Positions 8,268 to 26,187 of a stretch of 32,574 bases of DNA are shown piece after piece; position 1 is the stretch's first letter, and each line of letters begins with the position of its first letter. Both the position numbers and the translations under genes were made by a program. Origin of the DNA: Flavobacteriaceae bacterium UBA2000 (GTDB lineage: Bacteria > Bacteroidota > Bacteroidia > Flavobacteriales > Flavobacteriaceae); contig DDCS01000005.1 of the NCBI GenBank assembly GCA_002335345.1, positions 1 through 32,574 of the forward strand. The letters run 5' to 3'. The notes beneath the pieces are model-generated. The model did no database searches. It saw only the letters and a list, made by a program, of their open reading frames with translations, and was not told the DNA's origin.

Positions 8268-8294
8268 ACGATAATTGATTTCTATATAAAGATC

Positions 8295-10087: not shown

Positions 10088-10098
10088 GGCCTGTTAGT

Positions 10099-11202
10099 TT
10101 AATCCTGCCACTCGGCAATAAACAAGTTGGTATCACGTGTTCCCCCATTATTTCTATTTGAGGAAAACACTAAATACTTGCCGTCATTACTAAAGACCGG
10201 AAAGGCGTCAAAGGTTTCACTATGCGTAATACGCGTTAGATTTTTTCCGTCGGTATCAATCATATAAAGATTGAAAGGAAATCCGCGCTCAGCCTCGAAA
10301 TTACTGGAAAATAATATTTTGTCCCCGCTCGGGTGAAAAAATGGACTCCAGTTTGCATTGCCCAAACGCGTCAACTGTCGTAGGTCAGACCCGTCGGCAT
10401 TACAGATAAACAATTCCATTTCTGTAGGTTCCACGAGTCCGTCCGCCAATAAAGTCTTGTATTTTTCGATGGCTTCAGGTGTTTTTGGTCGTGAAGAACG
10501 GAAAATAATTTGGGTGCCATCGGGCGAGAAAAATGCGCCGCCATCATAACCTAGCTCATCGGTAATTTGCGTGACATTCGAGCCATCAATATTCATGGTA
10601 TACAATTCTAAATCCCCACTTCTCGTTGAGGTAAATACAATTTTGTCCCCCTTTGGCGAGACAGTGGCTTCAGCATCATAACCGGGTTCATTGGTGAGTT
10701 GCCCGGTAATATTGCCCTGTAGGTCTGCCACGAAAATATCGAAGCTATCGTAAACCGGCCAAACGTAATTACCGTTTTTTCTCAAGGGAACCTCAGGACA
10801 GGCCTCATTATCCAAATGTGTTGAAGCATAGACGAAATGAGTGTTGTCCGGTAAAAAATAACCACATGTGGTTCGTCCCTTTCCCGTTGAAATCATCGGA
10901 GGTTGATTGGCTGAAAATTCTTCATCGACATTCATGAGAAACATTTGATCGCAACCTACGCCCCAATCGGCATTGTTTGATTGAAAAAGAAGTTGCTGAT
11001 CGTCAAAACGCCAATAGGCTTCAGCATTGTCGCCTCCAAAAGTGACTTGACGCAATGATTTAAAATGCGTCTCTTCCGGATAGATGAGCAGATTATCAGG
11101 CGCAGTATTTTGCGCCGTCTCTTCTTGGGGGTCTTGCTTCTGTTGTTTTTGACCACAGGCAGCAAAAATCAAAAGCAACAATACAAGGTGTAGGTTTCTC
11201 AT
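10099..11202 (-). CDS. TolB-like PD40 beta-propeller lipoprotein
   Basis: Start at MRNLHLVLLLLIFAACGQ (lipobox). Repeated PD40-type segments SPKGDKIVFTS, SPDGTQIIFRS, HPSGDKILFSS and SNDGKYLVFSS. The longer 11316 start would run through the divergent promoter. Confidence 0.75.
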   Translation of the reverse strand: MRNLHLVLLLLIFAACGQKQQKQDPQEETAQNTAPDNLLIYPEETHFKSLRQVTFGGDNAEAYWRFDDQQLLFQSNNADWGVGCDQMFLMNVDEEFSANQPPMISTGKGRTTCGYFLPDNTHFVYASTHLDNEACPEVPLRKNGNYVWPVYDSFDIFVADLQGNITGQLTNEPGYDAEATVSPKGDKIVFTSTRSGDLELYTMNIDGSNVTQITDELGYDGGAFFSPDGTQIIFRSSRPKTPEAIEKYKTLLADGLVEPTEMELFICNADGSDLRQLTRLGNANWSPFFHPSGDKILFSSNFEAERGFPFNLYMIDTDGKNLTRITHSETFDAFPVFSNDGKYLVFSSNRNNGGTRDTNLFIAEWQD

Positions 11203-11210
11203 TTTTGGAC

Positions 11211-11218
11211 TATTTTTG
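11211..11218 (+). promoter_or_regulatory. -7 box TATTTTTG for the M28 peptidase gene
   Basis: Exact TAnnTTTG ending 15 nt before the ATG at 11234. Confidence 0.45.
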
Positions 11219-11220
11219 TG

Positions 11221-11228
11221 CAAAAATA
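11221..11228 (-). promoter_or_regulatory. -7 box TATTTTTG (minus strand) for the TolB-like/GT-C operon
   Basis: Plus-strand CAAAAATA equals an exact TAnnTTTG on the minus strand, 18 nt before the ATG at 11202. Confidence 0.45.
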
Positions 11229-11233
11229 AAGAT

Positions 11234-12472
11234 ATGCGCACAATTACAGTCCTTTTTTCCTTATTGATTTTATCTTCTTGTGGGGCCCCTTCTGTGGCTC
11301 CCGTCGACCAGCTCAAAACAGATGTAGCCTATTTGGCGTCTGATGAATTAGAGGGTAGAGAGACGGGGACAAAAGGAGAGCAACTGGCTGCTGACTATTT
11401 GGCTCAGCGTTTTGCTGCCCTGGGACTTTCCCCAAAAGGAGTTGAGGATTACCGTCAAAAATTCAGTTATAAACCCAGTACGAATCCCCATGAGCAAACC
11501 AAAGTTGATGCGCCGAGCCAAGACCAGGGGATGCCTCAAGGAATTAACGTGATTGGTTACAAAGATAATGGTGCGGATAAGACGGTGATCATCGGAGCGC
11601 ATTTCGATCATTTAGGATGGGGTGGTGAAGGGTCCCTTTATCGCGATAGCATTCCCAGTGTCCATAATGGAGCAGACGACAATGCCAGTGGCGTTGCTTT
11701 ACTTTTGTATTTGGCAGAGCGGCTCAAGGACGAGAAAAATACCCAAAGTAATTATTTGTTTATTGGATTTTCTGGTGAAGAAAAAGGTCTGTTAGGATCA
11801 AATTACTTTGCAAAAAACCCAACCATAGATTTGGCCTCTGTAAACGTGATGATCAATATGGATATGGTGGGGCGTCTGAATGAAGAAAATACTTTGGCCG
11901 TCCACGGAGTAGGGACCTCGCCAAGATTCAAACAACTCCTTTTTGCCAACAATGATTTTGGGTTGAACATTGCAGAGCATGAAAGCGGTGTTGGCCCCTC
12001 AGACCATACTTCTTTTTATTTAATGGATTTACCGGTACTTCATTTTTTTACAGGGCAGCATGAAGATTATCACAAGCCCTCAGATGACGCGGATAAAATC
12101 AACTATCCAGGATTAGAAACCATAGGACAATATATCTATGCCTTAGTCACTGATCTCGACGATGACCCCAAGTTGAGTTTCCGCAAAACGAAAAATGAGA
12201 GCGAAGAAACGCCTCGCTTTAAAGTAGGATTGGGTGTTATTCCGGATTATCTATACACGGGAACGGGAATGCGCATCGATGGCGTGAGTGAAGACAAGCC
12301 GGCACAAAAAGCGGGGCTTCAAAAAGGAGATGTTGTGGTTCGTTTAGGAGACAGTACAGTGACCGATATGATGAGTTATATGCGCGCACTGTCTGTGTTC
12401 AAGCAAGGCGATTCAACACAGGCGACTATCGAGCGCGGCGCCGAGTCTCTTGAGTTTCGGATCGATTTTTAA
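11234..12472 (+). CDS. M28-family aminopeptidase lipoprotein with C-terminal PDZ domain
   Basis: MRTITVLFSLLILSSCG lipobox. Zn-ligand motifs AHFDHLG, GADDNASGVA, GEEKGLLGS, NMDMVG and SDHTSF. PDZ-like GMRIDGVSEDKPAQKAGLQKGDVVVRLGD. Confidence 0.85.
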   Translation: MRTITVLFSLLILSSCGAPSVAPVDQLKTDVAYLASDELEGRETGTKGEQLAADYLAQRFAALGLSPKGVEDYRQKFSYKPSTNPHEQTKVDAPSQDQGMPQGINVIGYKDNGADKTVIIGAHFDHLGWGGEGSLYRDSIPSVHNGADDNASGVALLLYLAERLKDEKNTQSNYLFIGFSGEEKGLLGSNYFAKNPTIDLASVNVMINMDMVGRLNEENTLAVHGVGTSPRFKQLLFANNDFGLNIAEHESGVGPSDHTSFYLMDLPVLHFFTGQHEDYHKPSDDADKINYPGLETIGQYIYALVTDLDDDPKLSFRKTKNESEETPRFKVGLGVIPDYLYTGTGMRIDGVSEDKPAQKAGLQKGDVVVRLGDSTVTDMMSYMRALSVFKQGDSTQATIERGAESLEFRIDF

Positions 12473-12477
12473 GGCCA

Positions 12478-13482
12478 TCAATAGCGTCGACTGTAGGACA
12501 ATGAAACGTAGAGGTGGGGTTCAGCGCTGCGATTGCGGGCTGATTCGTAATGATATTTGAGGAAGACGTCATTTCGTTTGTAGCGCCAAAAAAAGCCGAC
12601 ATTAAAAAAATACATCATTCGATAAGGGGTAACCGTATAGACTGAGTTGTCACCAAGCCAATTGCCTTGTAACATGGCGTCGTGTAGCACGTAACGATAT
12701 CCAAAGCGGGTGGAAAAGAACAGTTCTGTTTCGCGTCCCAGTAATTGGCCATACGCCATACTCTTTTGAAGAGAAGATCGGCGTCCAAAATAAAATACGG
12801 CATCTTGCTCGACATAAGCGTCTTTGGTGCCCAGTGCTGCCTTTGGATTTAAGGAAAAGTAAACGGCAAAAGGCTTGGGATTCCATTGCCATTCACGGAC
12901 ATATTCGTAATAGGCATTGAGATGAAAACTATTATCTACTTGAGAAAGCCATGTGGCAATTTTAGAATCTACCGTTGCCGAATTGTGAAAGGCGCTTTGA
13001 ACAGTCTCTGAACCAGACCATGGGCCCGCAATACCAAAAACAAAATTATAACGATTCAAATGTGCTCTGCGGGTAACGGTCAGTCCATTATTAAGACCAA
13101 TAAAGCCAGCATAGGGGCGGTCTAAGAATTTTATTTTGTCGGTCAAAAGGTCTGTAGGGGTATAAATTTCCTGATACAGGACTAAGCTGTATTGACGGGT
13201 TTGTCTTTGCTCCAGTTGCTTCGGGGAAAGAGGGAGCCATCGGTGCAATCCTAAAAAACTTCCGGTAGAGTAGTAGCGATCAGTGAAATGTAAAAAATCA
13301 TTGTCTTGACGCAGTTCAAATTGATCAAAATAATCAGGGGACCACAAGGTGCTTTCTAATGAATCAATGCGTTGTGTTTGGGATTCCAGATGTTGTTCTT
13401 TCGACGCGATTAAGGTTTGCGCGTTCAGACTTGAACTGACGATCAAAAACAGCAACGCTATGTAATGAAAGATTTTGATCAT
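12478..13482 (-). CDS. LpxR-like (DUF2219) outer-membrane lipid A deacylase family protein
   Basis: Signal peptide MIKIFHYIALLFLIVSSSLNAQ. Motif RQDNDFLHFTDRYYSTGSF resembles the LpxR N-terminal NDxxxxxDRxYTxG motif. Beta-barrel-like aromatic C-terminus SLSYSRRY. Confidence 0.55.
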   Translation of the reverse strand: MIKIFHYIALLFLIVSSSLNAQTLIASKEQHLESQTQRIDSLESTLWSPDYFDQFELRQDNDFLHFTDRYYSTGSFLGLHRWLPLSPKQLEQRQTRQYSLVLYQEIYTPTDLLTDKIKFLDRPYAGFIGLNNGLTVTRRAHLNRYNFVFGIAGPWSGSETVQSAFHNSATVDSKIATWLSQVDNSFHLNAYYEYVREWQWNPKPFAVYFSLNPKAALGTKDAYVEQDAVFYFGRRSSLQKSMAYGQLLGRETELFFSTRFGYRYVLHDAMLQGNWLGDNSVYTVTPYRMMYFFNVGFFWRYKRNDVFLKYHYESARNRSAEPHLYVSLSYSRRY

Positions 13483-13489
13483 GCCCCGT

Positions 13490-14992
13490 TCAATGCTTAA
13501 ACCTGTCAAAAATACTTTTTATTAAAAGATAACCGAAACCCAAGATACAGAGTATATGAAATGGGGCTAAACCATAATCACCAGTCGTACCCATTTTTGT
13601 GGCCAGAAATAAGCCAAAAAGCGCATAAAGCATCAGAAATAGTTCCAAAACAACAGGGGCTATTGCCCCCCCCGCGGAATAATTTGCCCGAGTCTTGACC
13701 CGATCGCCCCGCTTTGCGTTAACCGTATTGACTTTTGGCGTGCGTACAAATGGAGTGATTACCCCAAGGTGTCCTTGAATAACAGCAATGGCGTTGTTTG
13801 CTGAAAGGCCAATGGCGAGGGTGAAAAAGACAATGAAATCAAAAAAGGCCTGCGCCCAAGATAGGTTGCGCTGTGTATTAAACATTTTATAGGCTCCGGT
13901 ATAGGACCAGAGGAACAGTAGTGTGGTTAGGCCAAAAGATTGGAATAAATAAAAAATCCAGGACCATTGTGGATGACTGTTTTTAATCCATAATAGGGGT
14001 AAACTCAGGACAATAAGGATCAGAACCAAAAAAAATATCGAGCTGCTAAACAAATGGGCCGTGCCAAAAACTTTTTCTTTAAGGCTCAGGTCTTTTTTAG
14101 CCCATAAGCGACGCCAAAGTTGCCTGAAATTTTGTGCCCCACCTTTATTCCATCTGAATTGTTGACTTCGTGCGGCTTGAACGCTCTGGGGTAATTGTGC
14201 CGGCGTAATAATGTCTGGGCGATACAGGATCCGCCATCCTTTGAGTTGGGCGCGATAGCTCAGATCAAGGTCTTCGGTTAGCGTCGTGCCGGACCAATTT
14301 CCAGCCTCTTCAATACAGGATTTGCGCCAGATTCCGGCAGTCCCATTAAAATTCATGAATACGCCATGGGCTTGTCGTCCGATTTGCTCAAGACCAAAGT
14401 GTAAATCCAGGGCAAAGGCCTGAACCCGTGTCAAAATTGAATGCGCTCGGTTGAGGTGTCCCCAGCGGGTTTGCACCACGCCAATTTTTGGATCCTTGAA
14501 GTAGGGCATACTGCGCAAGAGCCAATCGCTTTGCGGCAGAAAATCCGCGTCAAAAATGGCGATAAACTCACCCGTAGCCGCTGCTAAACCCTCTTTGAGG
14601 GCGCCTGCTTTAAATCCAGTTCTATGTCTTCGGTGTAGGTGTCTGATTGGGATTCCTTTTGCATTGAGCTTAGAAACGAGCGCGCCCACCATGGCGGTCG
14701 TCTGGTCTGTTGAATCATCGAGCACCTGAATTTCGAGACGATCCATTGGATATTGTATTGCCGCCACTTGTCTTATGAGCGCTTGGATCACATTTTGCTC
14801 ATTGTAAATGGGCAGTTGAATCGTTACTCTAGGTAAGTCGTCTTTTAGACTCAGGGGGGGCAATTGGTTTTTTGTGAATAGGTTTCTCGCCCCTTTAAAT
14901 TTGTGAAAAAGTAGGACCTGCGTTACGGCAAAGAGCAATACGATGAACAGGCAAAGCGCATAAATAAGGACGGTGAGAAACTCCAAGATCAT
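13490..14992 (-). CDS. membrane-embedded family-2 glycosyltransferase (CslA/MgdA/cellulose-synthase-like)
   Basis: N-terminal TM segment, VTIQLPIYNE, QVLDDSTD, FDADF, TEDLDLSYR and the QQFRWNKG (QxxRW) motif. Several C-terminal TM helices. Confidence 0.8.
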   Translation of the reverse strand: MILEFLTVLIYALCLFIVLLFAVTQVLLFHKFKGARNLFTKNQLPPLSLKDDLPRVTIQLPIYNEQNVIQALIRQVAAIQYPMDRLEIQVLDDSTDQTTAMVGALVSKLNAKGIPIRHLHRRHRTGFKAGALKEGLAAATGEFIAIFDADFLPQSDWLLRSMPYFKDPKIGVVQTRWGHLNRAHSILTRVQAFALDLHFGLEQIGRQAHGVFMNFNGTAGIWRKSCIEEAGNWSGTTLTEDLDLSYRAQLKGWRILYRPDIITPAQLPQSVQAARSQQFRWNKGGAQNFRQLWRRLWAKKDLSLKEKVFGTAHLFSSSIFFLVLILIVLSLPLLWIKNSHPQWSWIFYLFQSFGLTTLLFLWSYTGAYKMFNTQRNLSWAQAFFDFIVFFTLAIGLSANNAIAVIQGHLGVITPFVRTPKVNTVNAKRGDRVKTRANYSAGGAIAPVVLELFLMLYALFGLFLATKMGTTGDYGLAPFHILCILGFGYLLIKSIFDRFKH

Positions 14993-15699
14993 TTGAAAAC
15001 GGCGTGTTTGGCAATCCAGCCAATAATTTTCACTCCGGCAAAGATAACACCTTTTAAAGTCCCTGAAACTTTTGATACCCCGATGCGATTTCTGTAAGGT
15101 ACCGGAATTTCTATATAATTGAGATTCATATTCAGGGCCTTGAGTTGCATTTCGATCGTCCAGCCATAAGTCATGTCGGACATATTCATCGCCATGAGTT
15201 GTTCATAGCCTATGGCGCGAAAGGGCCCTAGGTCTGTGTAACGCGCGCCAAATAAATGACGCATAAGCCAAGTGGCCAGCCAATTGCCAAAGCGTTGAGG
15301 TGGGGTCATCGCTCCAGCTTCCATCAATTTAGAGTCTCTTGAACCGATGACAAGATCCATATTTTTTTCTTCAATCGGGGCGACCAAAGCATCGAGGTAT
15401 TCAGGATAGTCGCTGTAGTCGCCATCAAGAAATACAATGATCTCCGGCGTTTGTTCAGGGTGTTTCAGCGCTCTTGATTTGATGTGTTTCAGGGCACGCA
15501 TACAAGCATATCCATATCCTCGACGAGATTCATTGAGGACCAAAGCACCATGTTTTTTGGCTACGGCTGCGGTGTTGTCCGAAGAGCCGTTGTCGACAAC
15601 AATGACTTCTGTAGCTGATTTTGGGAGGTCATCCAGCACATGTCCGATGGCCCCAGCTTCATTGATAGCAGGAATAATTACCGTGATTTTTGCCCTCAA
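14989..15699 (-). CDS. family-2 glycosyltransferase, polyprenyl-phosphate-sugar-synthase (DPM1/GtrB)-like
   Basis: ITVIIPAINEAGAIG, VIVVDNGSSDNT, FLDGDYSD. The stop overlaps the next start (ATGA at 14989-14992). Confidence 0.8.
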   Translation of the reverse strand: MRAKITVIIPAINEAGAIGHVLDDLPKSATEVIVVDNGSSDNTAAVAKKHGALVLNESRRGYGYACMRALKHIKSRALKHPEQTPEIIVFLDGDYSDYPEYLDALVAPIEEKNMDLVIGSRDSKLMEAGAMTPPQRFGNWLATWLMRHLFGARYTDLGPFRAIGYEQLMAMNMSDMTYGWTIEMQLKALNMNLNYIEIPVPYRNRIGVSKVSGTLKGVIFAGVKIIGWIAKHAVFK

Positions 15700-15707
15700 A
15701 ATAGTCT

Positions 15708-16121
15708 CTATTTGCCCTCTAGTTCGATTTGCTGCTGAGGCACAATATAGGTGTCAAAATACCAAGAGGAAAATTCTTCTAGCCCGATAAACAATAGAAT
15801 TCCAAGAATAATAATCAAAGCCCCTACAAGCAGTAAATTCAGTTTTTTGCGCTTAGGATCGATAGAGCATTGATCTTGAGTTGTTTTGTATTTGTAGATC
15901 CCATAGGCGCCAATGAGGACAGCAACCACGCGAAGCAAGATCGCGCCAGTACCCAATGAGCCGTCTTCTTGGTAAAAAAAGTCTGCAAAAGAAATGGCGA
16001 CAACACCGCCCATAAGCCCAAGCATAAATAAAACGGCAGGGGCGACACAACACAAGATCCCTGCCAAAGCAGACATGAGTCCATATTTGAGCGTCCATTT
16101 AAAAATACTGGGTGTTTTCAT
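15708..16121 (-). CDS. small 4-TM membrane protein with MerT-like vicinal-cysteine helix
   Basis: The first TM segment reads ALAGILCCVAPAVLFMLGLMGG. Compare the MerT helix ASACCLGPLVLIALGFSG, recalled from memory. Three further hydrophobic segments follow. Confidence 0.55.
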   Translation of the reverse strand: MKTPSIFKWTLKYGLMSALAGILCCVAPAVLFMLGLMGGVVAISFADFFYQEDGSLGTGAILLRVVAVLIGAYGIYKYKTTQDQCSIDPKRKKLNLLLVGALIIILGILLFIGLEEFSSWYFDTYIVPQQQIELEGK

Positions 16122-16143
16122 AAAGTGAATCTAAGCCACTAAT

Positions 16144-16890
16144 TTACTCATTTTTTGGGGTATTGGGCCACACATTTCTTTGGTAGTAGGCCCACAGTTG
16201 TGCGGGGCTATGTCCACGTCGGTAATTGACTTGGATCACCCAAAAGTGCCATTGTAATTGCCAAAGCCCACGAGATTTATATTTGCGGGCTGAACTGATC
16301 ACTTTTTGGGGCAAGACGCAAAAGCGGGTCTGGGCATATAAACGGTCAATTAAATTTAAGTCTTCACAGATAATGTAGTCTTCTGAATAGCCCCCGATTT
16401 GGTCGAAAAGCGTTTTACGCACAAAAAGACTTTGGTCCCCGCCGCGACAGAATTTCCAATTAAAGCGGGTACCCCAGCCAGCTATTTTCAGCCACCAATG
16501 CGGCAGGTCAAATGCCATGCGAAAACAACCTGCTTGGCCGTCTTTGTGCTCCTGATTTATAATGTGTTGATCGTAGTTTTCTGGGGGCAGCGTGTCTGCG
16601 TGAATAAAATAGAGGAGCTTAGCGCGGGCGTGTGACGCACCCAAATTCATTTGGCGGGCTCGGCCAGCGGGGCCTTGAAGCAGCGTGACATTTTTCTGAG
16701 CGTTCTTTTTCTGCCAATGCTTCACCGAGCTTTGGGTTTGGTCTGAACTGCCCCCATCGACGATGATAACCTCTATGCGATGGGGATAAACGGCACGCTG
16801 AAATAGTGTTTCAATGGTCTGTAGAATATGGTTCGCCTCATTTAAGGTCGGGACGACTACAGAGAGATTAAGTGGGTTGCCTTGATTCAC
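16144..16890 (-). CDS. small soluble GT2 glycosyltransferase (TIGR04283-type, arsenosugar-cluster-associated)
   Basis: LSVVVPTLNEANHI, VIIVDGGSSDQT, FIHADTLPP. Its position in the ArsM/ArsS cluster matches the family's reported context. Confidence 0.7.
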   Translation of the reverse strand: MNQGNPLNLSVVVPTLNEANHILQTIETLFQRAVYPHRIEVIIVDGGSSDQTQSSVKHWQKKNAQKNVTLLQGPAGRARQMNLGASHARAKLLYFIHADTLPPENYDQHIINQEHKDGQAGCFRMAFDLPHWWLKIAGWGTRFNWKFCRGGDQSLFVRKTLFDQIGGYSEDYIICEDLNLIDRLYAQTRFCVLPQKVISSARKYKSRGLWQLQWHFWVIQVNYRRGHSPAQLWAYYQRNVWPNTPKNE

Positions 16891-16895
16891 CGAGA

Positions 16896-17699
16896 TTAAT
16901 TATTTAGCGACCAATCATAGGACAAATAACTGATGGCTACATTTGGGGCAAAGTTGTGCTTGGTGTATTGATTGATCAGTTGAATCAAGTCTTCAGTTGG
17001 GCCAAAATCACGCTTAAACCACAGAAAAATACGCGAGAGATTCAGGCGTTTTTCGGTGTAATTATTTTTTGTTGAATCGTTAAAAAAGACCGATGCAGCG
17101 CGATTGAGTTGTCGGTCAATTTGATCCCCCCGGTAGGCTTCATTAGACAGAATAGGACATGATTTTGAGGCGCAATTAATGGCGAAATGAATACGCGGCT
17201 CTTCAAACTTTCTCAAAATTTCGTGTTCTATGTCATCCAAAGTCCAGGCGTTATTTTTGCTTTTGAGCACCGTCTGCTTCCATGGTCGACTCAGGTCTTT
17301 AATGCTGCTTAAAGGCAGGTTATCGCAAATAAGTTTAACGGTGCAGGCGTTATAGGCATTAATCCAAAAGGCCAATTGCTCCTCTTTTGAACGAATTTTA
17401 ATTCCTTCAGCCTCTTTTGACAGTGCGCTGATATATCGGTTAAGGTCGCTGATATCACCTTGAAAGCTTGAGTAATCCACACGGCCTTGATCACTGACAT
17501 GACGTTTTAAAAGATGATCCCATAATTGGTGATCGATTCCTTCTTGTCCCAATTTTATTTGCCCCGCGCTGCCCTGCGTCATGTTCTGCGCGCTTGTTTT
17601 TGCGCTTGTTTGCGTTCTGATCTGCGCGCTTGTCTGGAGGTTGGTCTGGGCGTTGAGACCAAAGCCTATGAGTAAAATGAGCCAAAAATATTTCATCAC
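16896..17699 (-). CDS. exported DUF547-domain protein
   Basis: Signal peptide MMKYFWLILLIGFGLNAQ, a low-complexity QTSA(Q/K) linker, then DUF547 hallmarks FWINAYNACTV and EPRIHFAINCASKSCP. Confidence 0.7.
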   Translation of the reverse strand: MMKYFWLILLIGFGLNAQTNLQTSAQIRTQTSAKTSAQNMTQGSAGQIKLGQEGIDHQLWDHLLKRHVSDQGRVDYSSFQGDISDLNRYISALSKEAEGIKIRSKEEQLAFWINAYNACTVKLICDNLPLSSIKDLSRPWKQTVLKSKNNAWTLDDIEHEILRKFEEPRIHFAINCASKSCPILSNEAYRGDQIDRQLNRAASVFFNDSTKNNYTEKRLNLSRIFLWFKRDFGPTEDLIQLINQYTKHNFAPNVAISYLSYDWSLNN

Positions 17700-17728
17700 C
17701 TTATGCGTCTATCGTATCTATAGGATAA

Positions 17729-18697
17729 TTAACAACACCCGCCCCCATCATAGTGATAGGTCGATGGACTAATAAAAATATCGTTTCTGTTCAACGCAGC
17801 CAGCGCGGCGGCAGTTTTATCGCATATAGCCAAAGGTTGATTCGGCATCAGCACATGGCCTTTTTTATCGTCAAAATAGGGTTGGTCACCATAGTAAATG
17901 GCGGCTTTACCCGTAAAAATGCAAGGGCCATCATCGGGCATCGGGTCTTTGATCGCGGCCACTTCTATGGATTCAATATAGATTAATTCCTCTGTGGGGT
18001 AATGGCCTGGATCCAGAATACGATAAGGTTTTCTAGCGCGTATTTCAATAGTGCCAAAGCCGGCATCGGTAAGGGCCTTTACGTATTGATCGATGGGTAA
18101 ACTCCCACTAAGACACAAGGCCCGTAGTCGCTCGTCTTCTCTGAGTGTTACATTCATTTCTTGTTCGCAGGTAGGGTCACTCATGACCAGGCGTCCGTGT
18201 GGTTTGAGGACTCTGTACATTTCGGCAACAGCCTTTTTAAGTTCTTGATCTTTGAAGATGTTAAAAAGACAATTTTGGGCCGCGACATCCACGCTTTCAT
18301 TCTCAAGGGGAAGATTTAGGGCATCTCCCTTGCGCAATGAGACAAAATCTGACGAAAACCAGGGGTTTAGAGCTTCTGCTTCTTTGAAATTTGCCTGGGA
18401 AGCTTCAAGCATTTCATCGACGACATCTACGCCTATGACCTTTCCTTTTTCTCTTGAGAAATAAGCAAATTGCAGCAGCTCCATTCCGCCGCCGACACCG
18501 ACATAGAGAATTTTGGGATTACGGCTTAAATCGCGCGGATGTACCGTTGAGCCACAACCGTAATTCATTTCCTGCATGATTTTTGGGATTTTAAGTCCTG
18601 GCAATTCCCATATGGGGTTGGTGGTACAGCACAACCCAATATCTGGAGTTTCTGCTGCTTTTTTATAGACGTCTTTGGTGGTATCTAAATAACTCAT
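17729..18697 (-). CDS. arsM: arsenite S-adenosylmethionine methyltransferase
   Basis: N-terminal Cys pair DIGLCCTTNP, NYGCGS, SAM motif ILYVGVGGGMEL, a later conserved Cys in LRALCLSGS, and C-terminal GGGCC. Confidence 0.8.
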   Translation of the reverse strand: MSYLDTTKDVYKKAAETPDIGLCCTTNPIWELPGLKIPKIMQEMNYGCGSTVHPRDLSRNPKILYVGVGGGMELLQFAYFSREKGKVIGVDVVDEMLEASQANFKEAEALNPWFSSDFVSLRKGDALNLPLENESVDVAAQNCLFNIFKDQELKKAVAEMYRVLKPHGRLVMSDPTCEQEMNVTLREDERLRALCLSGSLPIDQYVKALTDAGFGTIEIRARKPYRILDPGHYPTEELIYIESIEVAAIKDPMPDDGPCIFTGKAAIYYGDQPYFDDKKGHVLMPNQPLAICDKTAAALAALNRNDIFISPSTYHYDGGGCC

Positions 18698-19524
18698 AAG
18701 GATAAACGCTCAATTAAAATTTTAAATAATTCAACCATTTTGGGTTCAGCTTTTTTTGCACTGGCGATAATGTCACTGATGTCCACGGGTGCCAAATGGT
18801 CTGGATCGCACTCATCTGTTAATACCGAAATGGCCGCCACGGGTAAGGATAAATGATTGGCGACTATAATCTCAGGAACAGTACTCATGCCTACGGCATC
18901 TCCTCCGATAAGTCTTAAATAGCGATACTCGGCCTTAGTTTCGAGTTCAGGTCCCCGCACGCCAATATAAACCCCTTGATGAAGATCTATGCCACGCTCT
19001 TGGGCAATGGCGCGCAAAGAGGCGCACATTTCTAGATCATATGGTGTGTTGAGGTCTACAAATCGTTCCCCCATTTGATCGACCCCTTTAAAAGCCAATG
19101 GGGAACAACCTTGCAGATTAATGTGATCGGTTATGAGCATCATTTCCCCTTTTTTATAATTGAGATTTAGAGCGCCAGAGGCATTGCTCACCAATAGGCG
19201 CTTTACGCCAAGGGCACGCATGACCCGAATGGGAAAAGTCACCTCTTCTGGAGTATATCCTTCGTAAAGATGAAATCTACCCTGCATTACGATTACTTTT
19301 TTTCCGCCAAGAATGCCATAAATAAGCTTTCCTTGATGAAATTCCACGGTAGCGGTTGGAAAATGGGGTATGGCCGAATAATGTGCTTCTTGCTCTATAG
19401 TGACGGCATCGACCAGTGCCCCGAGGCCGGTGCCAAGCACAATGCCAATTTCGGGTTGGTCAAATCCGCGTGCTTCGAGATAACTCTTGGCCTGTTCTAC
19501 CTGTTGTATGAGAATGGGTTTCAT
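18694..19524 (-). CDS. trimeric-type purine nucleoside phosphorylase (PNP/MTAP family)
   Basis: GIVLGTGLG, VMQGRFHLYEGY, LLVSNASGALN, GPELETKAEYR, DAVGMSTVPE. ATGA overlaps at both ends. Confidence 0.9.
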   Translation of the reverse strand: MKPILIQQVEQAKSYLEARGFDQPEIGIVLGTGLGALVDAVTIEQEAHYSAIPHFPTATVEFHQGKLIYGILGGKKVIVMQGRFHLYEGYTPEEVTFPIRVMRALGVKRLLVSNASGALNLNYKKGEMMLITDHINLQGCSPLAFKGVDQMGERFVDLNTPYDLEMCASLRAIAQERGIDLHQGVYIGVRGPELETKAEYRYLRLIGGDAVGMSTVPEIIVANHLSLPVAAISVLTDECDPDHLAPVDISDIIASAKKAEPKMVELFKILIERLSL

Positions 19525-20132
19525 TTTATTAAAGGATTAAATACTTCTTCAGGATAAAGATCTTCAAATTGATCTATATCGTTTTTAATAGGGAGAAGAA
19601 ATGGTGAATCTGGTTTCAAATTAATTAAAGTATCTGTTAAAACTGTGGCACTCCCCCAAATTTTATTTTCAAACAAATCGGGATTCATCTGGGTCATCCC
19701 GATGAGATAATATCCACCATCTCGGGCAGGCCCGATAACGGTTTTATGCGTGTCTAGGCGGTCAAAGGCCTGAACAATTAATTCTGGGGTCAGGTCGTAT
19801 AAATCGCTACCGATGACAATCGCTTTTTTTGCTCCGTTGGTCAATGCAGTGTTTATGGCGTTAGCCATGCGCGCCCCCAGATCATCGCCCTGCTGCACAT
19901 CCTTATCGAACACTTTGGGGTCAAAAGCATCTTGGGGCTCTAAGTAATTGCTGTAAAAAACGACTCGTTTGGCGGGAACCTCAGCGGTAATCTTTGCCGT
20001 GTGCTCCAGCAAAAATTTGTAAACCGCTAAAGCTTTTTCTGGGCCAATACGCGCCGCTAGGCGCGTTTTACACTGCCCTAAAATTGGATTTTTACAAAAG
20101 ATAATGAGATGATTTTCTCTGGTTTGGTTCAT
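19521..20132 (-). CDS. DUF2064/TIGR04282-type transferase (nucleotidyl-/glycosyltransferase-like)
   Basis: LIIFCKNPILGQCKTRLA, an N-terminal motif typical of DUF2064. GSDLYDLT and GPARDGGYYLIG. Confidence 0.7.
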   Translation of the reverse strand: MNQTRENHLIIFCKNPILGQCKTRLAARIGPEKALAVYKFLLEHTAKITAEVPAKRVVFYSNYLEPQDAFDPKVFDKDVQQGDDLGARMANAINTALTNGAKKAIVIGSDLYDLTPELIVQAFDRLDTHKTVIGPARDGGYYLIGMTQMNPDLFENKIWGSATVLTDTLINLKPDSPFLLPIKNDIDQFEDLYPEEVFNPLIK

Positions 20133-20171
20133 GATTTAGCCTAAGTCTTAGCGCACAACAAGGTTTAACAT

Positions 20172-20672
20172 TCAAAAGGTAGGGGTGCCTTTTTCGACAT
20201 ATCGTGCCCAGTTTTTGTCATAGCCATGTAGGGCAAGTGTTGGTTTATTTTGTGAATCAACCACGGGATGACTTTGATTATACCATTGAAAAATACCCCC
20301 GTAAAGGTTGAATATCTTGTAATAACCTAACTGTTTGAGTTTGACACCAATTTGTTCTGATCGAACCCCGATAGAGCAATAAACCACTATTGGAGTGGAC
20401 GGCGCTATATTTAATGCATTGATTTTATGGGCATCAAATTCGTCGTAACCCACAAACCGTGCCCCTTGGATATGGGACACTTCATATTCTTTTAGTGCCC
20501 GTGTGTCCAAAAATAGAACACTGTCTTTTTGATGCCATTGGAATGCCGCATCGGTATTTATATAGGGAATTATACCGGTATTATAGCGCTTTAAGGCTTT
20601 GTCAATCGGGCTTTGACTCCAGGCACTTAGCGTGATCATGATTATGCCAAATAAGGGAATAAGTCTTTTCAT
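20172..20672 (-). CDS. exported single-domain rhodanese
   Basis: I chose the start MKRLIPLFGIIMITLSAWSQ (signal peptide), which forms an ATGA overlap with the arsS stop. Active-site loop VVYCSIGVRS (CX4R). Confidence 0.8.
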   Translation of the reverse strand: MKRLIPLFGIIMITLSAWSQSPIDKALKRYNTGIIPYINTDAAFQWHQKDSVLFLDTRALKEYEVSHIQGARFVGYDEFDAHKINALNIAPSTPIVVYCSIGVRSEQIGVKLKQLGYYKIFNLYGGIFQWYNQSHPVVDSQNKPTLALHGYDKNWARYVEKGTPTF

Positions 20673-21736
20673 ATGACGGCCCCTTGACAACTACTGCCGG
20701 CCCCTGCGGTACAGCCATAACAGTGTTGTGAAATTTTAATGAGACGCCCCTCCATCAGGTCGTTTTGGTACTGAGCAATATGTTGTCGGGCATCATTAAT
20801 CGGCATTTGTAGCATTTGATTGAAATCACAATCAAAAAGATAGCCGTCCCATGAAACGGACAAGGTGTTGAGGCACATTACCGCCCTGGCTGCTGCGGGA
20901 TTAAACGATTCCACGAGCGTCCACATATAGTCTTCATAATTGTCTGAAGCAATGAGATAATCTAGAAATCTAGAAATGGGTAAATTGGTTAGGGCAAAAA
21001 GTCCATTAAATTTTATGTTAAAGCTTTGATCCAAGCGCCTTTTGAAATCTTGGCAGAGGGCTTCTTGGTCTCCCGGTAAAAAAGCCCCACTTGGGTTGTA
21101 AACTAAATCCAGTGTCAGGTTGCTCCCCGTTAGGCCATAACCTACATCATTAAGCATTTTTAGGGCCTTAATAGAATCCTCAAACACTCCTGAACCGCGC
21201 TGACGATCTGTTTTTTCTTTGGTCCAATGGGGCATGCTGCTCACGACATGTACCTGGTGTTGCGCAAAGAATTCAGGTAAATCGTGGTATTTTTTATTGG
21301 CCACAATTATGGTCAGGTTACTGCGTACGATTATTTCATTCACCCCACGTGCTTTGGCCTGGGTAACAAACCACCGGAAGTTCGGATTCATCTCGGGGGC
21401 CCCACCGGTGAGGTCTAAAGTTTTTACGCCACTGGATTCCATGACCTTGAGGCAGTGCTCCATGGTTTCTTGTGTCATGATTTCTTTTCGGTCTGGACCC
21501 GCATCCACATGACAATGCGCACAAACCTGATTACACATATAACCCAGGTTCACTTGAAGGATATCCAGCCCCGTTGTTTTTAAGGGAGCACCCAGACTTT
21601 GCTGTATTTTTTGGCCGAATTTTGGTGCGTCCCCATTGGAAAAAATACCCTCCTCTAAAATTTTAAGCTGTCGCTCTGTTTGGGCCAGCGGACTTTGTCT
21701 TTTGTGTAAAGATTGTAATACTTTGGTTTGGCTCAT
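20669..21736 (-). CDS. arsS: radical SAM enzyme, arsenosugar-biosynthesis ArsS type
   Basis: 4Fe-4S/SAM motif CNQVCAHC, LDLTGGAPEMNP, and a Cys-rich C-terminus CLNTLSVSWDGYLFDCDFN...HCYGCTAGAGSSCQGA. Confidence 0.8.
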   Translation of the reverse strand: MSQTKVLQSLHKRQSPLAQTERQLKILEEGIFSNGDAPKFGQKIQQSLGAPLKTTGLDILQVNLGYMCNQVCAHCHVDAGPDRKEIMTQETMEHCLKVMESSGVKTLDLTGGAPEMNPNFRWFVTQAKARGVNEIIVRSNLTIIVANKKYHDLPEFFAQHQVHVVSSMPHWTKEKTDRQRGSGVFEDSIKALKMLNDVGYGLTGSNLTLDLVYNPSGAFLPGDQEALCQDFKRRLDQSFNIKFNGLFALTNLPISRFLDYLIASDNYEDYMWTLVESFNPAAARAVMCLNTLSVSWDGYLFDCDFNQMLQMPINDARQHIAQYQNDLMEGRLIKISQHCYGCTAGAGSSCQGAVI

Positions 21737-21742
21737 GGCGAC

Positions 21743-22072
21743 TTATGAATCCAATTTATTGACCTTATTCATCATCATTACCCCATGGACCAGCGTAGCA
21801 CCACTTTTTATAGCAGCCCCAACATGGACGGCCTCCATCATTTCTTCTTTGGTAATCCCGCGCTCTAATCCGTCTTTGGTATAAGCATCAATACAATAAG
21901 GGCACATCTCCGTGTGGGCAACAGCAAGGGCGATCAGGGACTTCTCTCTCGGGGTCAAAGCCCCTTCTTTAAAAACACTGTTGTAGTAGTCAAAAAATTT
22001 TTCTCCCAGGGATTCACTCCACTCGGTAATGCGGCCAAATTTTCTGAGATCTTTTGGGTCGTAATAAGACAT
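21743..22072 (-). CDS. AhpD/carboxymuconolactone-decarboxylase-like CxxC protein (arsenosugar-cluster-associated peroxidase-like)
   Basis: 109 aa with LTPREKSLIALAVAHTEMCPYCIDAYT. First gene of the operon, 6 nt upstream of arsS. Confidence 0.75.
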   Translation of the reverse strand: MSYYDPKDLRKFGRITEWSESLGEKFFDYYNSVFKEGALTPREKSLIALAVAHTEMCPYCIDAYTKDGLERGITKEEMMEAVHVGAAIKSGATLVHGVMMMNKVNKLDS

Positions 22073-22091
22073 AAATGTATTTTTTAGCGAT

Positions 22092-22109
22092 TAAATCGTT
22101 TCCGATTTA
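22092..22109. promoter_or_regulatory. perfect 7-bp inverted repeat TAAATCG-tttc-CGATTTA in the leader of the arsenosugar operon
   Basis: Read directly from the sequence. It lies between the candidate -7 box (22116-22123) and the ATG at 22072. Confidence 0.5.
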
Positions 22110-22115
22110 GGTTCC

Positions 22116-22123
22116 TAAAGATA
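22116..22123 (-). promoter_or_regulatory. near-consensus -7 box TATCTTTA (minus strand)
   Basis: One mismatch to TAnnTTTG and the same core as the TATCTTTG boxes at 362 and 3447. It ends 43 nt upstream of the first ATG. No canonical -33 TTG seen. Confidence 0.3.
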
Positions 22124-22146: not shown

Positions 22147-22180
22147 TTAACGCGCCCCTCTTTTAACGCCCAATTAACGC
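22147..22180. repeat. three direct copies of TTAACGC (GCGTTAA on the minus strand)
   Basis: Copies at 22147-22153, 22163-22169 and 22174-22180, with start-to-start spacing of 16 and 11 nt. They sit just upstream of the candidate promoter. Confidence 0.6.
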
Positions 22181-22201
22181 AAAGGACAGGCGCGGGTTGA
22201 T

Positions 22202-23851
22202 TTATCTAAAATAAATATAGATGGCGGCAACAAGCAAGACAATCAGCGCCCCAATGGGTTTGGTATAGGCCCAGGGTTGAATGTCAACTTGTTTTGTGTA
22301 CTCAATAGTATAGGCTTCTTTACGTGGATAAAACTTCCCAATAAGGAGCATAATAAGCACATTTAACACAAAGAGTATGGCCATGACATCGAGATAATGC
22401 AATCCAAAATACCCTTGTGATTCAATGATAGAAAGTGTGTTCGGGTCTGTAATGCCCTCTGCCTTAGCGGCGGCCAAAGCGTCACTTACAAAATGAGGTT
22501 TTAAAAAGAACTGGCTCAAAATATAAAGTAAAGAACCCGAGAGTAAGCCTATTTTTGCTGCGATGGCAGGAACTCTTTTGGTTAGATAGCCCACCACGAT
22601 AATGGTTAAAATTGGAATCGAGTAGATGCCGTTAATTTCCTGAAGATAGTCGAATAGGCTTCCAGCATTGGCAATAAATGGGGCAATTACCATAGCGCCA
22701 ATGGCCAAAACGACACCAAACATTTTTCCTTTATTGACCACGGTGGCTTCATCGGCCTCAGGGTTGATGTGTTGCTTATAAATGTCGATCCCAAACAAAG
22801 TCACTGAGCTGTTAAGGACACTATTGAAGGAACTTAAGATGGCCCCAAAGATAACTGCTGCAAAGAATCCAAGTAGGGCTGGGGGGAGCACTGCAGAAAC
22901 GAGTTGAGGATAGGCTTGATCCACCGCAGAAAGGTTGGGAAACATATGATAAGCAATGATTCCTGGAAGCACGACAATGATAGGGCCAAGAATCTTAATA
23001 AAGGAGCCCAAAAGCAAACCCTTTTGGCCTTCTTCTAGGTTTTTAGCGCCCAGTGCTCGCTGTATAATTTGTTGGTTTGTTCCCCAATAAAAAAGCTGAA
23101 CCAACATCATTCCCGTAAAAATGGTGTAAAATGGAACCGGATCTGTGCGCTCGCCCATAGATTTTAATTTTTCAGGATGTTCTGCCGCCAAAACGGATAG
23201 TCCATTCATAAGGCTTCCATCCCCAATAGCGATAAGGCCCAAAACAGGGATGAGTAATCCGCCAATTAACAGACCAATTGCATTTATCGTGTCAGACACC
23301 GCTACAGCCTTTAGTCCGCCAAACACCGCATAGATGGAGCCAATAAGACCGATACCCCAAACGCAGAGATAAATTGCTTGAGCATTGGACACCCCAAAGG
23401 CCGCTGGTATGTCAAACATTCCACTTATGGCCACTGAGCCAGAGTATAAAATCACAGGAAGTAACACAACGACATAACCCGTCAAAAACAGGGCAGAGGT
23501 GATGGTTTTAGTGGTGGTATCAAATCGATTGGCCAAAAATTGGGGTACGGTGGTGAGCCCGCCTTTGAGATAGCGCGGCAATAAAAACATTGCCGTAACC
23601 ACCATGGCAATGGCCGCTAAACTTTCCCAGGCCATAACGGAGAGACCACTTTCGTATGCCGATCCATTGAGCCCCACGATTTGTTCGGTCGATAAATTGG
23701 TCAGGAGTAAAGAACCCGCGATAACCCCAGCGGTAAGACTGCGCCCCCCTAAAAAATAGCCATCTGCACTTTTTTCATTTGTTTTCCTCGAGGCGAAATA
23801 GGCAATAATGGCTACTAAGGCGGTAAAAGCGATAAATGAAATGATGGTCAT
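22202..23851 (-). CDS. sodium:solute symporter (SSS/SGLT family)
   Basis: 549 aa with about 13-14 TM segments. N-terminal DGYFLGGRSLTAGVIAGSLLLTNLSTEQIVGLNG is typical of SGLT-type transporters. Confidence 0.85.
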   Translation of the reverse strand: MTIISFIAFTALVAIIAYFASRKTNEKSADGYFLGGRSLTAGVIAGSLLLTNLSTEQIVGLNGSAYESGLSVMAWESLAAIAMVVTAMFLLPRYLKGGLTTVPQFLANRFDTTTKTITSALFLTGYVVVLLPVILYSGSVAISGMFDIPAAFGVSNAQAIYLCVWGIGLIGSIYAVFGGLKAVAVSDTINAIGLLIGGLLIPVLGLIAIGDGSLMNGLSVLAAEHPEKLKSMGERTDPVPFYTIFTGMMLVQLFYWGTNQQIIQRALGAKNLEEGQKGLLLGSFIKILGPIIVVLPGIIAYHMFPNLSAVDQAYPQLVSAVLPPALLGFFAAVIFGAILSSFNSVLNSSVTLFGIDIYKQHINPEADEATVVNKGKMFGVVLAIGAMVIAPFIANAGSLFDYLQEINGIYSIPILTIIVVGYLTKRVPAIAAKIGLLSGSLLYILSQFFLKPHFVSDALAAAKAEGITDPNTLSIIESQGYFGLHYLDVMAILFVLNVLIMLLIGKFYPRKEAYTIEYTKQVDIQPWAYTKPIGALIVLLVAAIYIYFR

Positions 23852-23881
23852 CGGTTGTGTTTTTCTAGTTAGTTGTTAAAG

Positions 23882-24850
23882 TTAGTCATTTAAAATGTCT
23901 GATATAACATCGGCGTAATCTGGGATGCGCCCAACATTTTGAAGTTTTATGGCGGCCATTTTTAGTGCCGAGGATAAACATTTCTCTGGCTTTTGGCCTT
24001 TGATATGTCCATAAAGAAATCCACTCCAAAAGGCATCACCCGCCCCAGTGGCATCCATTATTTTTTCGACTTTAAGCGCGGAGAGTTGAATCACCTCATG
24101 GCCTGCAACACTGAGTTTGGCTCCATCCTTGCCTAAAGTAAAACAAATCGTCTGTGCGCCCAATCCATGAAGGTATTCAAAAACCTCCTGGTGACTTAAT
24201 CCCGGCCCCAGCAAACGATCCACGTCATCTTGGCTAATTTTGACCAAGGCCCCCCATTGGCAATAGCGCGTAATGGCTTCAATGGCTTCATTCCGGTTTG
24301 GCCAAATTTTTTCACTGTAATTCACGTCAATGCTGAGTTGTACTCCTCGTTGCGCCGCACGCTCCGCTGCCGAAAGTATTGTTTCTCTAGCAGGATCTCG
24401 GCTTAAGGCAAAACAGGTGGTATGACAAATTTTACTTGAATTCAGTAAGGCGTCAGGGATTTGATTGGGATAAATTTCTTTATCCGCACCGCGATAGGCG
24501 ATAAATTCCGGGGTTCCTGCGGTGTTGTTGATAAAAATAACGGTACTCGGTGTCTGCGGGGCACGATACATATACTGGGTATCGATCCCAGCCTCTTCAA
24601 ACCGACTGAGCATATAGTCTCCAAAACCATCATCACCAACACTAGAGATCATCGCCACATTCATGCCTAATCGCGCCATGTTCATGGCGACATTGGTTGG
24701 TGACCCCCCGAGATATCGATGATAATCTTTAGTTTCACTAATGGGAGCTTCATTTTGTGTTCCAATAAAATCGATTAAGGTCTCCCCGATACAGATTAAA
24801 TCCGTTGAAAGATTTTTACTGTTATTCATAACTGATTGTGCATTCATCAA
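23882..24850 (-). CDS. PfkB-family sugar kinase (fructokinase-like)
   Basis: LICIGETLIDFIG, YLGGSPTNVAMNMARLG and DATGAGDAFWSGFLYG (PfkB signature). Confidence 0.8.
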   Translation of the reverse strand: MMNAQSVMNNSKNLSTDLICIGETLIDFIGTQNEAPISETKDYHRYLGGSPTNVAMNMARLGMNVAMISSVGDDGFGDYMLSRFEEAGIDTQYMYRAPQTPSTVIFINNTAGTPEFIAYRGADKEIYPNQIPDALLNSSKICHTTCFALSRDPARETILSAAERAAQRGVQLSIDVNYSEKIWPNRNEAIEAITRYCQWGALVKISQDDVDRLLGPGLSHQEVFEYLHGLGAQTICFTLGKDGAKLSVAGHEVIQLSALKVEKIMDATGAGDAFWSGFLYGHIKGQKPEKCLSSALKMAAIKLQNVGRIPDYADVISDILND

Positions 24851-24865
24851 AAATTACGATATCGT

Positions 24866-26176: not shown

Positions 26177-26187
26177 GTCGTTGTGTT

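Follow-up and report, generated by a model that had tools for sequence, protein, structure and literature searches.

What is made by an arsenosugar gene cluster that runs on into genes for membrane glycosylation? The question is raised by contig DDCS01000005.1 of Flavobacteriaceae bacterium UBA2000 (assembly GCA_002335345.1), on which a stretch of 32,574 nucleotides, analysed whole and referred to here as the window, carries twelve consecutive minus-strand open reading frames (ORFs), numbered g1 to g12 and running from 22072 down to 12478 in the ORF listing. In marine food webs organic arsenic occurs mainly as arsenosugars and arsenolipids, and to our knowledge all biosynthetic steps after 5′-deoxy-5′-dimethylarsinoyl-adenosine (DDMAA) have remained unknown since the pathway was proposed in the 1980s. 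With belief and doubt in about equal measure, we read the window as a compact version of a Flavobacteriaceae supercluster, in which an arsenosugar core is joined to a lipid-carrier glycosylation module routed via polyprenyl phosphate (Pol-P) and a GT-C glycosyltransferase. The new part is the conserved coupling of this core to a Pol-P-synthase-like GT2, a cellulose-synthase-like GT2, a GT-C enzyme and a CC-motif membrane protein. The genes are as follows, with scores and cut-offs in bits.

21743-22072, minus strand: g1, AhpD/CMD-like CxxC (CPYC) protein; TIGR04169, 183.7 (cut-off 120); Pfam CMD
20669-21736, minus strand: g2, ArsS radical S-adenosylmethionine (SAM) enzyme; TIGR04167 equivalog, 431.7 (cut-off 300)
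20172-20672, minus strand: g3, single-domain rhodanese; NF045521 "rhoda_near_glyco", 171.4 (cut-off 145); Pfam Rhodanese
19521-20132, minus strand: g4, TIGR04282 (DUF2064) protein; TIGR04282, 195.9 (cut-off 134); Pfam DUF2064
18694-19524, minus strand: g5, trimeric-type purine nucleoside phosphorylase (PNP); NF006054, 329 (cut-off 218)
17729-18697, minus strand: g6, arsenosugar-type ArsM, an As(III) SAM methyltransferase; NF038099, 564.7 (cut-off 400)
16896-17699, minus strand: g7, DUF547 protein; Pfam DUF547, 91.4
16144-16890, minus strand: g8, GT2 glycosyltransferase; TIGR04283, 230.8 (cut-off 182)
15708-16121, minus strand: g9, CC-motif membrane protein with three predicted transmembrane (TM) helices; no Pfam or NCBIfam family
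14989-15699, minus strand: g10, soluble GT2; Pfam Glycos_transf_2, 80; nearest to dolichyl-phosphate (Dol-P)/Pol-P-sugar synthases
13490-14992, minus strand: g11, membrane GT2 of cellulose-synthase-like fold, 500 aa; Pfam Glyco_tranf_2_3, Glyco_trans_2_3 and Glyco_transf_21
12478-13509, minus strand: g12, LpxR-family outer-membrane protein; Pfam LpxR (PF09982), 140.7 (cut-off 26)
8681-10087, minus strand: GT87/MptA_B-like GT-C glycosyltransferase; Pfam GT87, 45.7 (cut-off 25)

Operon Layout

The twelve ORFs, their gaps of at most 39 nt and the four ATGA stop/start overlaps described in an earlier, sequence-only reading of this DNA were all recovered at the coordinates given there. From g1 to g12 the 11 junctions measure +6, −4, +39, −4, −4, +29, +5, +22, +8, −4, and −20 nt, the last of them +7 if g12 begins at the ATG at 13482, and the overlaps lie at 20669-20672 (g2/g3), 19521-19524, 18694-18697, and 14989-14992 (g10/g11). 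The outer end that had been proposed, position 22123, overshoots the first start codon by 51 nt on its upstream side. So dense a run of twelve genes in one direction is a layout that, as far as sequence can tell, is typical of an operon and not of chance.

The Arsenosugar Core

Six genes of this operon (g1, g2, g3, g4, g6, and g8) exceed the NCBIfam cut-offs of arsenosugar-linked families. The ArsS and ArsM candidates, on which the sequence-only reading hinged, score far above theirs, and the accessory families TIGR04169, TIGR04282, and TIGR04283 pass as well. The family labels it had given (rhodanese, DUF2064, PNP, ArsM-like, DUF547, the GT2s, the large GT2, LpxR, and CMD/AhpD-like) were likewise recovered.

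The g2 protein matches TIGR04167 over profile positions 2-303 of 303 (E = 1.3e-129). Its identification as ArsS-like, made earlier from CNQVCAHC and a Cys-rich tail, is borne out by the cluster motif C68NQVC72AHC75 (CX3CX2C, with Cys and not Sec) and by Pfam DUF3641 at the Cys-rich C-terminus (175.9 bits), together with Radical_SAM (38.2 bits). A PDB sequence search with ArsS gave no match to a solved structure. The g1 family TIGR04169 carries the NCBIfam name "arsenosugar biosynthesis-associated peroxidase-like protein", and a gene of this family adjoins ArsS in 81 of 82 ArsS loci (L001-L082). In g6, cysteines in YGCGST, NCLFN, and LCLSGSL align with the three As(III)-binding cysteines of CmArsM (4fs8/4kw7), namely C72, C174, and C224; on the general arsenite methyltransferase model the protein scores 123 bits against a cut-off of 263.

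The g3 rhodanese starts at an ATG (the longest ORF begins at TTG 20690) and has a signal-like N-terminus and a six-residue active-site loop, CSIGVR. We read g4 as a nucleotidyltransferase and not as a Leloir glycosyltransferase because it has the conserved KTRL motif of CofC/MobA type and aligns with PDB entry 3cgx (E = 2e-22); it also matches CofC at 32 bits, and would be a sugar-1-phosphate nucleotidyltransferase of CofC/MobA-like fold. The g7 protein has a signal-like N-terminus and an NCASKSCP motif, and a literature search for DUF547 function found nothing relevant.

The PNP encoded by g5 would remove adenine from DDMAA, and it keeps its linkage to the cluster through rearrangements (L064, L071, L078, and L080). 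Its D237 aligns with N243 of human PNP, where a change of Asn to Asp is known to admit adenine nucleosides. As a cluster-specific marker of adenine nucleosides this residue was rejected, since Asp is also found in the bacterial PNPs 4lna, 8swt, and 4m1e.

The small GT2 g8, which had been counted among the distal genes, is TIGR04283 itself and belongs to the known core. The eight genes g1 to g8 thus form a core that is widespread in Flavobacteriaceae, already named by NCBI annotation and not new: ArsS homologues at ~70% identity are called "arsenosugar biosynthesis radical SAM (seleno)protein ArsS" in many genera of the family. The word "undescribed", which the sequence-only reading had used of the enzymes, is therefore too strong for this part of the operon.

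The Glycosylation Module

The five distal genes had also been treated as one unit, which they are not: g8 is core, g9, g10, and g11 recur in other loci, and the LpxR-like g12 is confined to the window's own lineage and one other contig.

In g9, C24-C25 (CCVAPA, in the first TM helix) and C85 are invariant in 16 homologues. All of its 572 homologues are unnamed proteins without Pfam domains, on contigs of marine Flavobacteriaceae type. A suggested identity as MerT was rejected, with 15 bits on Pfam MerT (cut-off 32.9) and 21.4 on NCBIfam MerTP (cut-off 180); the likeness behind the earlier label is restricted to the first TM helix and its CC motif, as an hhalign comparison with MerT (probability 40%) covered only 38 columns of TM1 with the CC pair. 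The gene lies between the core and g10 in L011, L027, L087, L088, L111, L120, L122, and L167. In most relatives its slot is taken by a flavoprotein and a NapH-like Fe-S membrane protein, and the two solutions are mutually exclusive (g9 only in 6 loci, the pair only in 36, both in none). The pair, which is absent from the window, consists of a CoA-disulfide-reductase/ferredoxin-reductase-like flavoprotein of ~430 aa and a NapH/MauN-like protein of ~527 aa upstream of g10 (for example L037 12611-15477 and L083 5665-8636).

For g10, no TM anchor was found by TM prediction. Its best named relatives are AglJ (113.2 bits, cut-off 325), the Dol-P-hexose transferase family (67.2, cut-off 375), and PpgS (45.7, cut-off 370), all of them below the equivalog level. 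The g11 protein is predicted to have one N-terminal and four to five C-terminal TM helices, and its motifs DDS (92-94), DAD (148-150), TED (239-241), and QQFRW (277-281) are invariant in 13 homologues. Its PDB matches are BcsA (E = 2e-20, over the catalytic domain) and PcManGT 6yv7 (1e-13), and it remains below the equivalog cut-offs of the named synthases PgaC (126.5 bits against 422), CelA (113.7 against 699), and NodC (50.6 against 550). The g12 protein covers LpxR profile positions 16-322 of 323 and has a signal-like N-terminus; a PDB sequence search gave no match, including none to a solved LpxR. As its homologues are limited to the window's own lineage (L001 and L087, 81-92% identity) and L098 (43%), we regard it as a local, lineage-specific addition.

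The coordinates proposed earlier (12478-22123) missed the GT-C gene at 8681-10087, a homologue of which trails g11 in most relatives. It probably belongs to the same system as the twelve genes and would encode a periplasmic-face transferase using the product of g10. Its protein scores 28 bits on the MptB equivalog (cut-off 40), and its homologues in L167 and L171 carry precomputed Pfam MptA_B_family matches. In the window it is separated from g12 by two genes:

10099-11316, minus strand: TolB/PD40-like gene; Pfam PD40
11216-12472, plus strand: M28-PDZ peptidase; Pfam Peptidase_M28 and PDZ

The block of M28-PDZ, PD40/TolB-like and GT-C genes recurs in L087, L092, L098, L120, and L171, and the first two are doubtful members of the system.

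Conserved Synteny

Neighbours of ArsS were counted within 10 kb in 46 loci of Flavobacteriaceae type with at least 9 kb downstream. CMD is present in all 46, TIGR04282 in 43, PNP in 34, rhodanese in 30, DUF547 in 27, ArsM in 26, and TIGR04283 in 22, which makes TIGR04282 the steadiest core gene after CMD. All eight core genes stand in the window's order in 15 of the 46. Locus L001, whose ArsS is 89% identical, has all twelve genes and the same flanks, and Hwangdonia lutea has g1 to g8 only. At least one gene of the extended module, which we define as GH113, metallophosphoesterase, flavoprotein, NapH-like Fe-S membrane protein, g9, g10, g11, and GT87-like gene, lies near ArsS in 22 of these loci.

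A second scan of metagenome contigs was anchored on g11, blind to ArsS, and gave 80 loci. The g10 gene is directly upstream of or adjacent to g11 in 56 of them; where such g10-g11 loci have at least 9 kb upstream (n = 25), at least one core gene is found in 21 and at least two in 18. Where the sequence continues for at least 2.5 kb downstream (31 loci), g11 is followed by the GT87-like gene in 27. The other 24 of the 80 loci have g11 homologues of 41-51% identity without an adjacent g10, and these were set aside as a different orthologous group because they have almost no cluster genes (a core-gene match in 2/24). In all three cultured genomes chosen from the g11 matches, Patiriisocius sp. Uisw_017, Formosa agariphila KMM 3901, and Luteirhabdus pelagi, g10-g11 lie downstream of arsenosugar genes. 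The co-occurrence of core and distal glycosyltransferase genes, put forward for checking in the sequence-only reading, is upheld by these long contigs and cultured genomes.

Linkage between core and distal genes is also kept where order and orientation are not. The cluster is split into divergent blocks in L064, g10-g11-GT-C is followed by rhodanese and TIGR04282 in L142-144 and L161, g11 precedes g10 in L165 and L150, and L136 is another rearranged locus in which the link persists. Because it survives such changes, the link between core and distal genes points to functional coupling and not just to inherited order. TIGR04282 is common to clusters with ArsS only and to clusters with glycosylation genes only, as would be expected if it makes the donor sugar. 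Where clusters are reduced or rearranged, it remains with the g10-g11-GT-C module; one case is an abundant TARA Flavobacteriaceae lineage (L167 and L168, 8634-13937), whose reduced cluster reads TIGR04282-DUF547-g9-g10-g11-GT-C. The g9 homologue of this lineage, P0350, is indexed in 912 blocks of the metagenome collection.

Several cluster genes of relatives are absent from the window, namely an OlsE-like FA_hydroxylase and, on the opposite strand, GH113 (beta-mannanase family) and a metallophosphoesterase (L011 15259-16140 and 17753-19497; L085 6598-7500; L171 1702-2628). FA_hydroxylase and GH113 each occur in 16 of the 46 ArsS loci. In L085 (Formosa agariphila KMM 3901) the order at 3393-11491 is CMD-ArsS-TIGR04282-PNP-FA_hydroxylase-outer-membrane protein-g10-g11, with no ArsM, rhodanese, DUF547, or TIGR04283 nearby, which raises the question of the source of dimethylarsenite (DMAs(III)) there.

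Proposed Route

The gene content suggests the following route. ArsM (g6) would methylate As(III) to DMAs(III), an activity shown for its family, and ArsS (g2) would add the 5′-deoxyadenosyl group to give DDMAA, as shown for the cyanobacterial ArsS. The conversion of DMAs(III) to DDMAA by ArsS is described in PMC13598754 and PMC12159101, with biochemistry from the cyanobacterial enzyme. PNP (g5) could then phosphorolyse DDMAA to adenine and 5-deoxy-5-dimethylarsinoyl-α-ribose-1-phosphate, and TIGR04282 (g4) could turn this pentose-1-phosphate into a nucleoside diphosphate (NDP) sugar. From there the inverting GT2 TIGR04283 (g8) would make soluble β-ribosides. Natural arsenosugars are β-ribosides and PNP yields the α-1-phosphate, and the stereochemistry of an α-1-phosphate followed by an inverting GT2 would be coherent with that.

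In a second branch, g10 would load the sugar onto polyprenyl phosphate. GT-C enzymes use Dol-P-sugar or Pol-P-sugar donors, and the enzyme encoded at 8681-10087, acting at the periplasmic face, could pass this sugar on to a glycan or glycolipid that g11 makes. Thiol, redox, or sulfur chemistry of the arsenic centre may be the task of g1 (the CxxC protein), g9, and the exported proteins g3 (rhodanese) and g7 (DUF547), and the LpxR-like g12 would be a late addition in the window's lineage. Taken to its end, this route would mean that marine Flavobacteriaceae attach an arsenic-containing pentose covalently to an envelope glycan or lipid via NDP-sugar, polyprenyl phosphate and GT-C, a proposal that we make tentatively and consider somewhat unlikely.

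The sequence-only reading had spoken of a complete candidate route with an arsenolipid or arsenosugar-decorated envelope as its end. Both the completeness and the arsenolipid are inferences, and the window lacks the FA_hydroxylase, GH113, metallophosphoesterase, and flavoprotein/NapH-like pair present in most relatives. Judged by gene content, an envelope glycoconjugate reached by a Pol-P/GT-C route is favoured, more so than the work of a simple lipid glycosyltransferase. Literature searches on arsenosugars and Flavobacteria, on PNP and arsenosugar synthesis, and on enzymes after ArsS found nothing relevant.

Weighing of Alternatives

Several observations weigh against the supercluster reading. 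We know of no organism in which the steps after ArsS have been demonstrated. Transfer by a GT-C enzyme would give an α-linked sugar, unlike the known β-arsenosugars, and Asp237 of g5 is a trait of its subfamily and is not cluster-specific. The proteins of g10, g11, and the GT-C gene all score under every equivalog cut-off, so that their sugars and acceptors are not assignable. In 10 loci from other orders of Bacteroidota, ArsS has no extended-module gene beside it, part of the synteny within Flavobacteriaceae may reflect shared ancestry, and homologues of g9 are also found alone in unrelated contexts. Finally, the reduced cluster of L167 and L168 has no ArsS, ArsM, PNP, or CMD within 10 kb, and the L105 contig has g10-g11-GT-C alone.

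These last two cases leave the presence of arsenic in the module's product unproven, and they are the starting point of a serious rival, which we nevertheless judge unlikely: that the distal module (g9-g11 and GT-C, with GH113 in relatives) makes an envelope glycan free of arsenic. This glycan could be a beta-mannan-type or lipoarabinomannan-like (LAM-like) polymer, or a decoration of lipid A or lipopolysaccharide (LPS). TIGR04282 and DUF547 would then serve the glycan pathway, and adjacency to the core would come from shared regulation, for example under phosphate limitation (arsenate enters through phosphate transporters), or from inherited order. If ArsS is truly absent from the genomes with the reduced cluster, the substrate of the module is arsenic-free and the link to arsenic regulatory or optional. 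The processive QxxRW signature and BcsA-like fold of g11 agree with a polymer, as does the recurrence of GH113 next to g11 in relatives, like that of BcsZ with BcsA. The GT-C protein resembles the Pol-P-mannose-dependent MptA/B, and LpxR-family proteins act on lipid A according to Pfam. Were the module arsenic-free, GH113 beside g11 and an MptA/B-like GT-C would point to a mannan-type envelope polymer. Against this rival, TIGR04282 and rhodanese stay with the g10-g11-GT-C triad despite scrambled order, and with ArsS where the triad is lacking; core genes lie within 10 kb in 21 of the 25 long contigs; and in the window itself g8, g9, g10, and g11 follow each other with spacings of 22 and 8 nt and a 4-nt overlap.

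Less probable again is the arsenolipid reading of the earlier note, which we consider quite improbable. Here g11 would be an MgdA- or GT21-type lipid glycosyltransferase that places arsenoribose on diacylglycerol or phosphatidylglycerol, the products would be arsenosugar phospholipids or glycolipids, and soluble arsenosugars would be their breakdown products. It draws on the match of the membrane-anchored g11 to Pfam Glyco_transf_21 (the ceramide glucosyltransferase family), on the OlsE-like lipid hydroxylase and metallophosphoesterase in the clusters of relatives, and on arsenosugar phospholipids, which PMC12159101 cites as known from Synechocystis. It leaves unexplained why g11 is constantly accompanied by a Pol-P-sugar-synthase-like GT2 and a GT-C enzyme; moreover, g11 has the QxxRW/TED set, its best PDB matches are polymer synthases, and the lipid hydroxylase and phosphoesterase are missing from the window.

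That the whole Flavobacteriaceae cluster acts on a non-arsenic substrate (5′-deoxyadenosine or 5′-methylthioadenosine left over by SAM enzymes, or an analogue with selenium or sulfur), with "arsenosugar" names due to annotation transfer, we regard as very improbable. In its favour, the literature search gave no experimental work on these bacteria, family scans saw no ars resistance genes among the window's ORFs, ArsS is missing from the reduced cluster, and in the M. tuberculosis precedent the pentose is a methylthio sugar. Against it, ArsS and ArsM score well above equivalog-level cut-offs and the As(III)-binding cysteines of ArsM are kept.

Flanking Regions and Composition

The right flank (22202-31958, minus strand) encodes a sodium:solute symporter, a PfkB sugar kinase, a sucrose-type MFS transporter, a GyrI-like protein, a PAP2 protein (its counterpart in L001 is vanadium-haloperoxidase-like), and a large FG-GAP/ASPIC protein. 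Symporter, kinase, and MFS transporter are also upstream of the cluster in L001 and L087; L008 has kinase and MFS homologues upstream and a weak symporter match (30% identity) on the opposite strand. The left flank (351-7962, plus strand) encodes mevalonate diphosphate decarboxylase (MVD), a GHMP kinase, a UbiA prenyltransferase, and an RluB-like pseudouridine synthase, and then a polyamine set of Orn/Arg decarboxylase-like, arginase-family, and deoxyhypusine-synthase-like genes. In L167, too, the GT-C end of the cluster adjoins the housekeeping genes for MVD, GHMP kinase, and the RluB-like protein.

The symporter gene and g1 are 129 nt apart, and this spacer holds a GC-rich inverted repeat, CGCGCC ... 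GGCGCG, at c. 22151-22196 with a loop of ~30 nt, which could be a terminator or an operator. Neither the sigma-70 promoter scan (29 against 24.7±5.0 in shuffled controls) nor the terminator scan (21 against 13.9±4.3) rose above its controls, the models being uninformative for Bacteroidota. The Rfam and tRNA scans of the window gave no match, and therefore no riboswitch upstream of g1. A recently acquired island was rejected on composition, of which GC content gives no such sign (0.42-0.47 across the operon, 0.38-0.46 in the rest of the window).

Implications

The supercluster offers one candidate for each missing step: a phosphorylase, an enzyme for activation, and transferases of two kinds. 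It is present in cultured heterotrophs (Patiriisocius sp. Uisw_017, Luteirhabdus pelagi, Neotamlana nanhaiensis, Salegentibacter spp., and Formosa agariphila). Abundant marine heterotrophic bacteria, beyond algae and cyanobacteria, may make complex organoarsenicals and may display them on the cell surface. If this is true, ideas of how arsenic cycles in the sea, and of where the arsenic in particulate organic matter comes from, would change, and the product would be the first arsenic-bearing envelope glycoconjugate. The adenine-removing PNP, the TIGR04282 nucleotidyltransferase, and the MtxS/MtxT-like transfer pair would provide the first enzymology after DDMAA, and the g9 family, or the flavoprotein/NapH-like pair, would provide thiol or redox chemistry across the membrane. 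If the arsenic-free rival holds instead, a widespread uncharacterised envelope-glycosylation module in Flavobacteriaceae is still defined.

Comparison with Known Systems

The closest system for the core is the ArsM/ArsS arsenosugar pathway of Synechocystis sp. PCC 6803, reportedly described by Xue et al. in 2019. It is also attributed to Cheng et al. 2021 in PMC12159101. Both systems have an ArsM-type methyltransferase and a TIGR04167 radical SAM enzyme side by side, and they share the CX3CX2C motif, the DUF3641 tail rich in Cys, and the cysteines that bind As(III). Unlike Synechocystis, the host of the window is a heterotrophic marine member of the Flavobacteriaceae, ten further genes are apparently co-transcribed, and the ArsM falls in the separate NF038099 subfamily. 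Compared with the arsenosugar neighbourhood of NCBIfam/TIGRFAM, the window has TIGR04167, TIGR04169, TIGR04282, TIGR04283, NF038099, and NF045521 above cut-offs and in the usual order, whereas PNP, DUF547, g9, g10, g11, GT-C, and the LpxR-like gene have no dedicated model and are tied to it by synteny.

For g11 the nearest comparison is BcsA/BcsZ. The protein aligns over the BcsA catalytic domain with TED and QxxRW, and relatives have a GH113 gene nearby; unlike BcsA, it is 500 aa long without a PilZ domain or a BcsB partner, and GH113 is absent from the window.

In the lipid A modification system ArnC/ArnT, as in FlmF/FlmK and LgmA/LgmB, a GT-C enzyme transfers, at the periplasmic face, the sugar that a GT2 has placed on Pol-P. 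The window has this GT2/GT-C logic and a gene of the LpxR (lipid A deacylase) family in the operon. Matches to ArnC (19-24 bits) and ArnT are weak at best, however; the GT-C protein resembles GT87/MptA_B rather than ArnT, and the LpxR-like gene is confined to the window's lineage.

The closest precedent for the proposed route is the methylthioxylose (MTX) capping of lipoarabinomannan in M. tuberculosis, reportedly described by Angala et al. in 2017. Its locus also holds a PNP-family phosphorylase, Rv0535 MTAP. PMC8780516 and PMC12088412 describe MtxS (Rv0539, a GT2 Pol-P-MTX synthase) and MtxT (Rv0541c, a GT-C enzyme) in this organism. In contrast to that system, the substituent in the window would be dimethylarsinoyl instead of methylthio, and the host is a Gram-negative Bacteroidota. 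By analogy of enzyme classes and locus logic, on which the likeness rests, in both cases a SAM-derived, C5-substituted pentose would be loaded onto polyprenyl phosphate by a small GT2 and passed by a GT-C enzyme to an envelope glycan.

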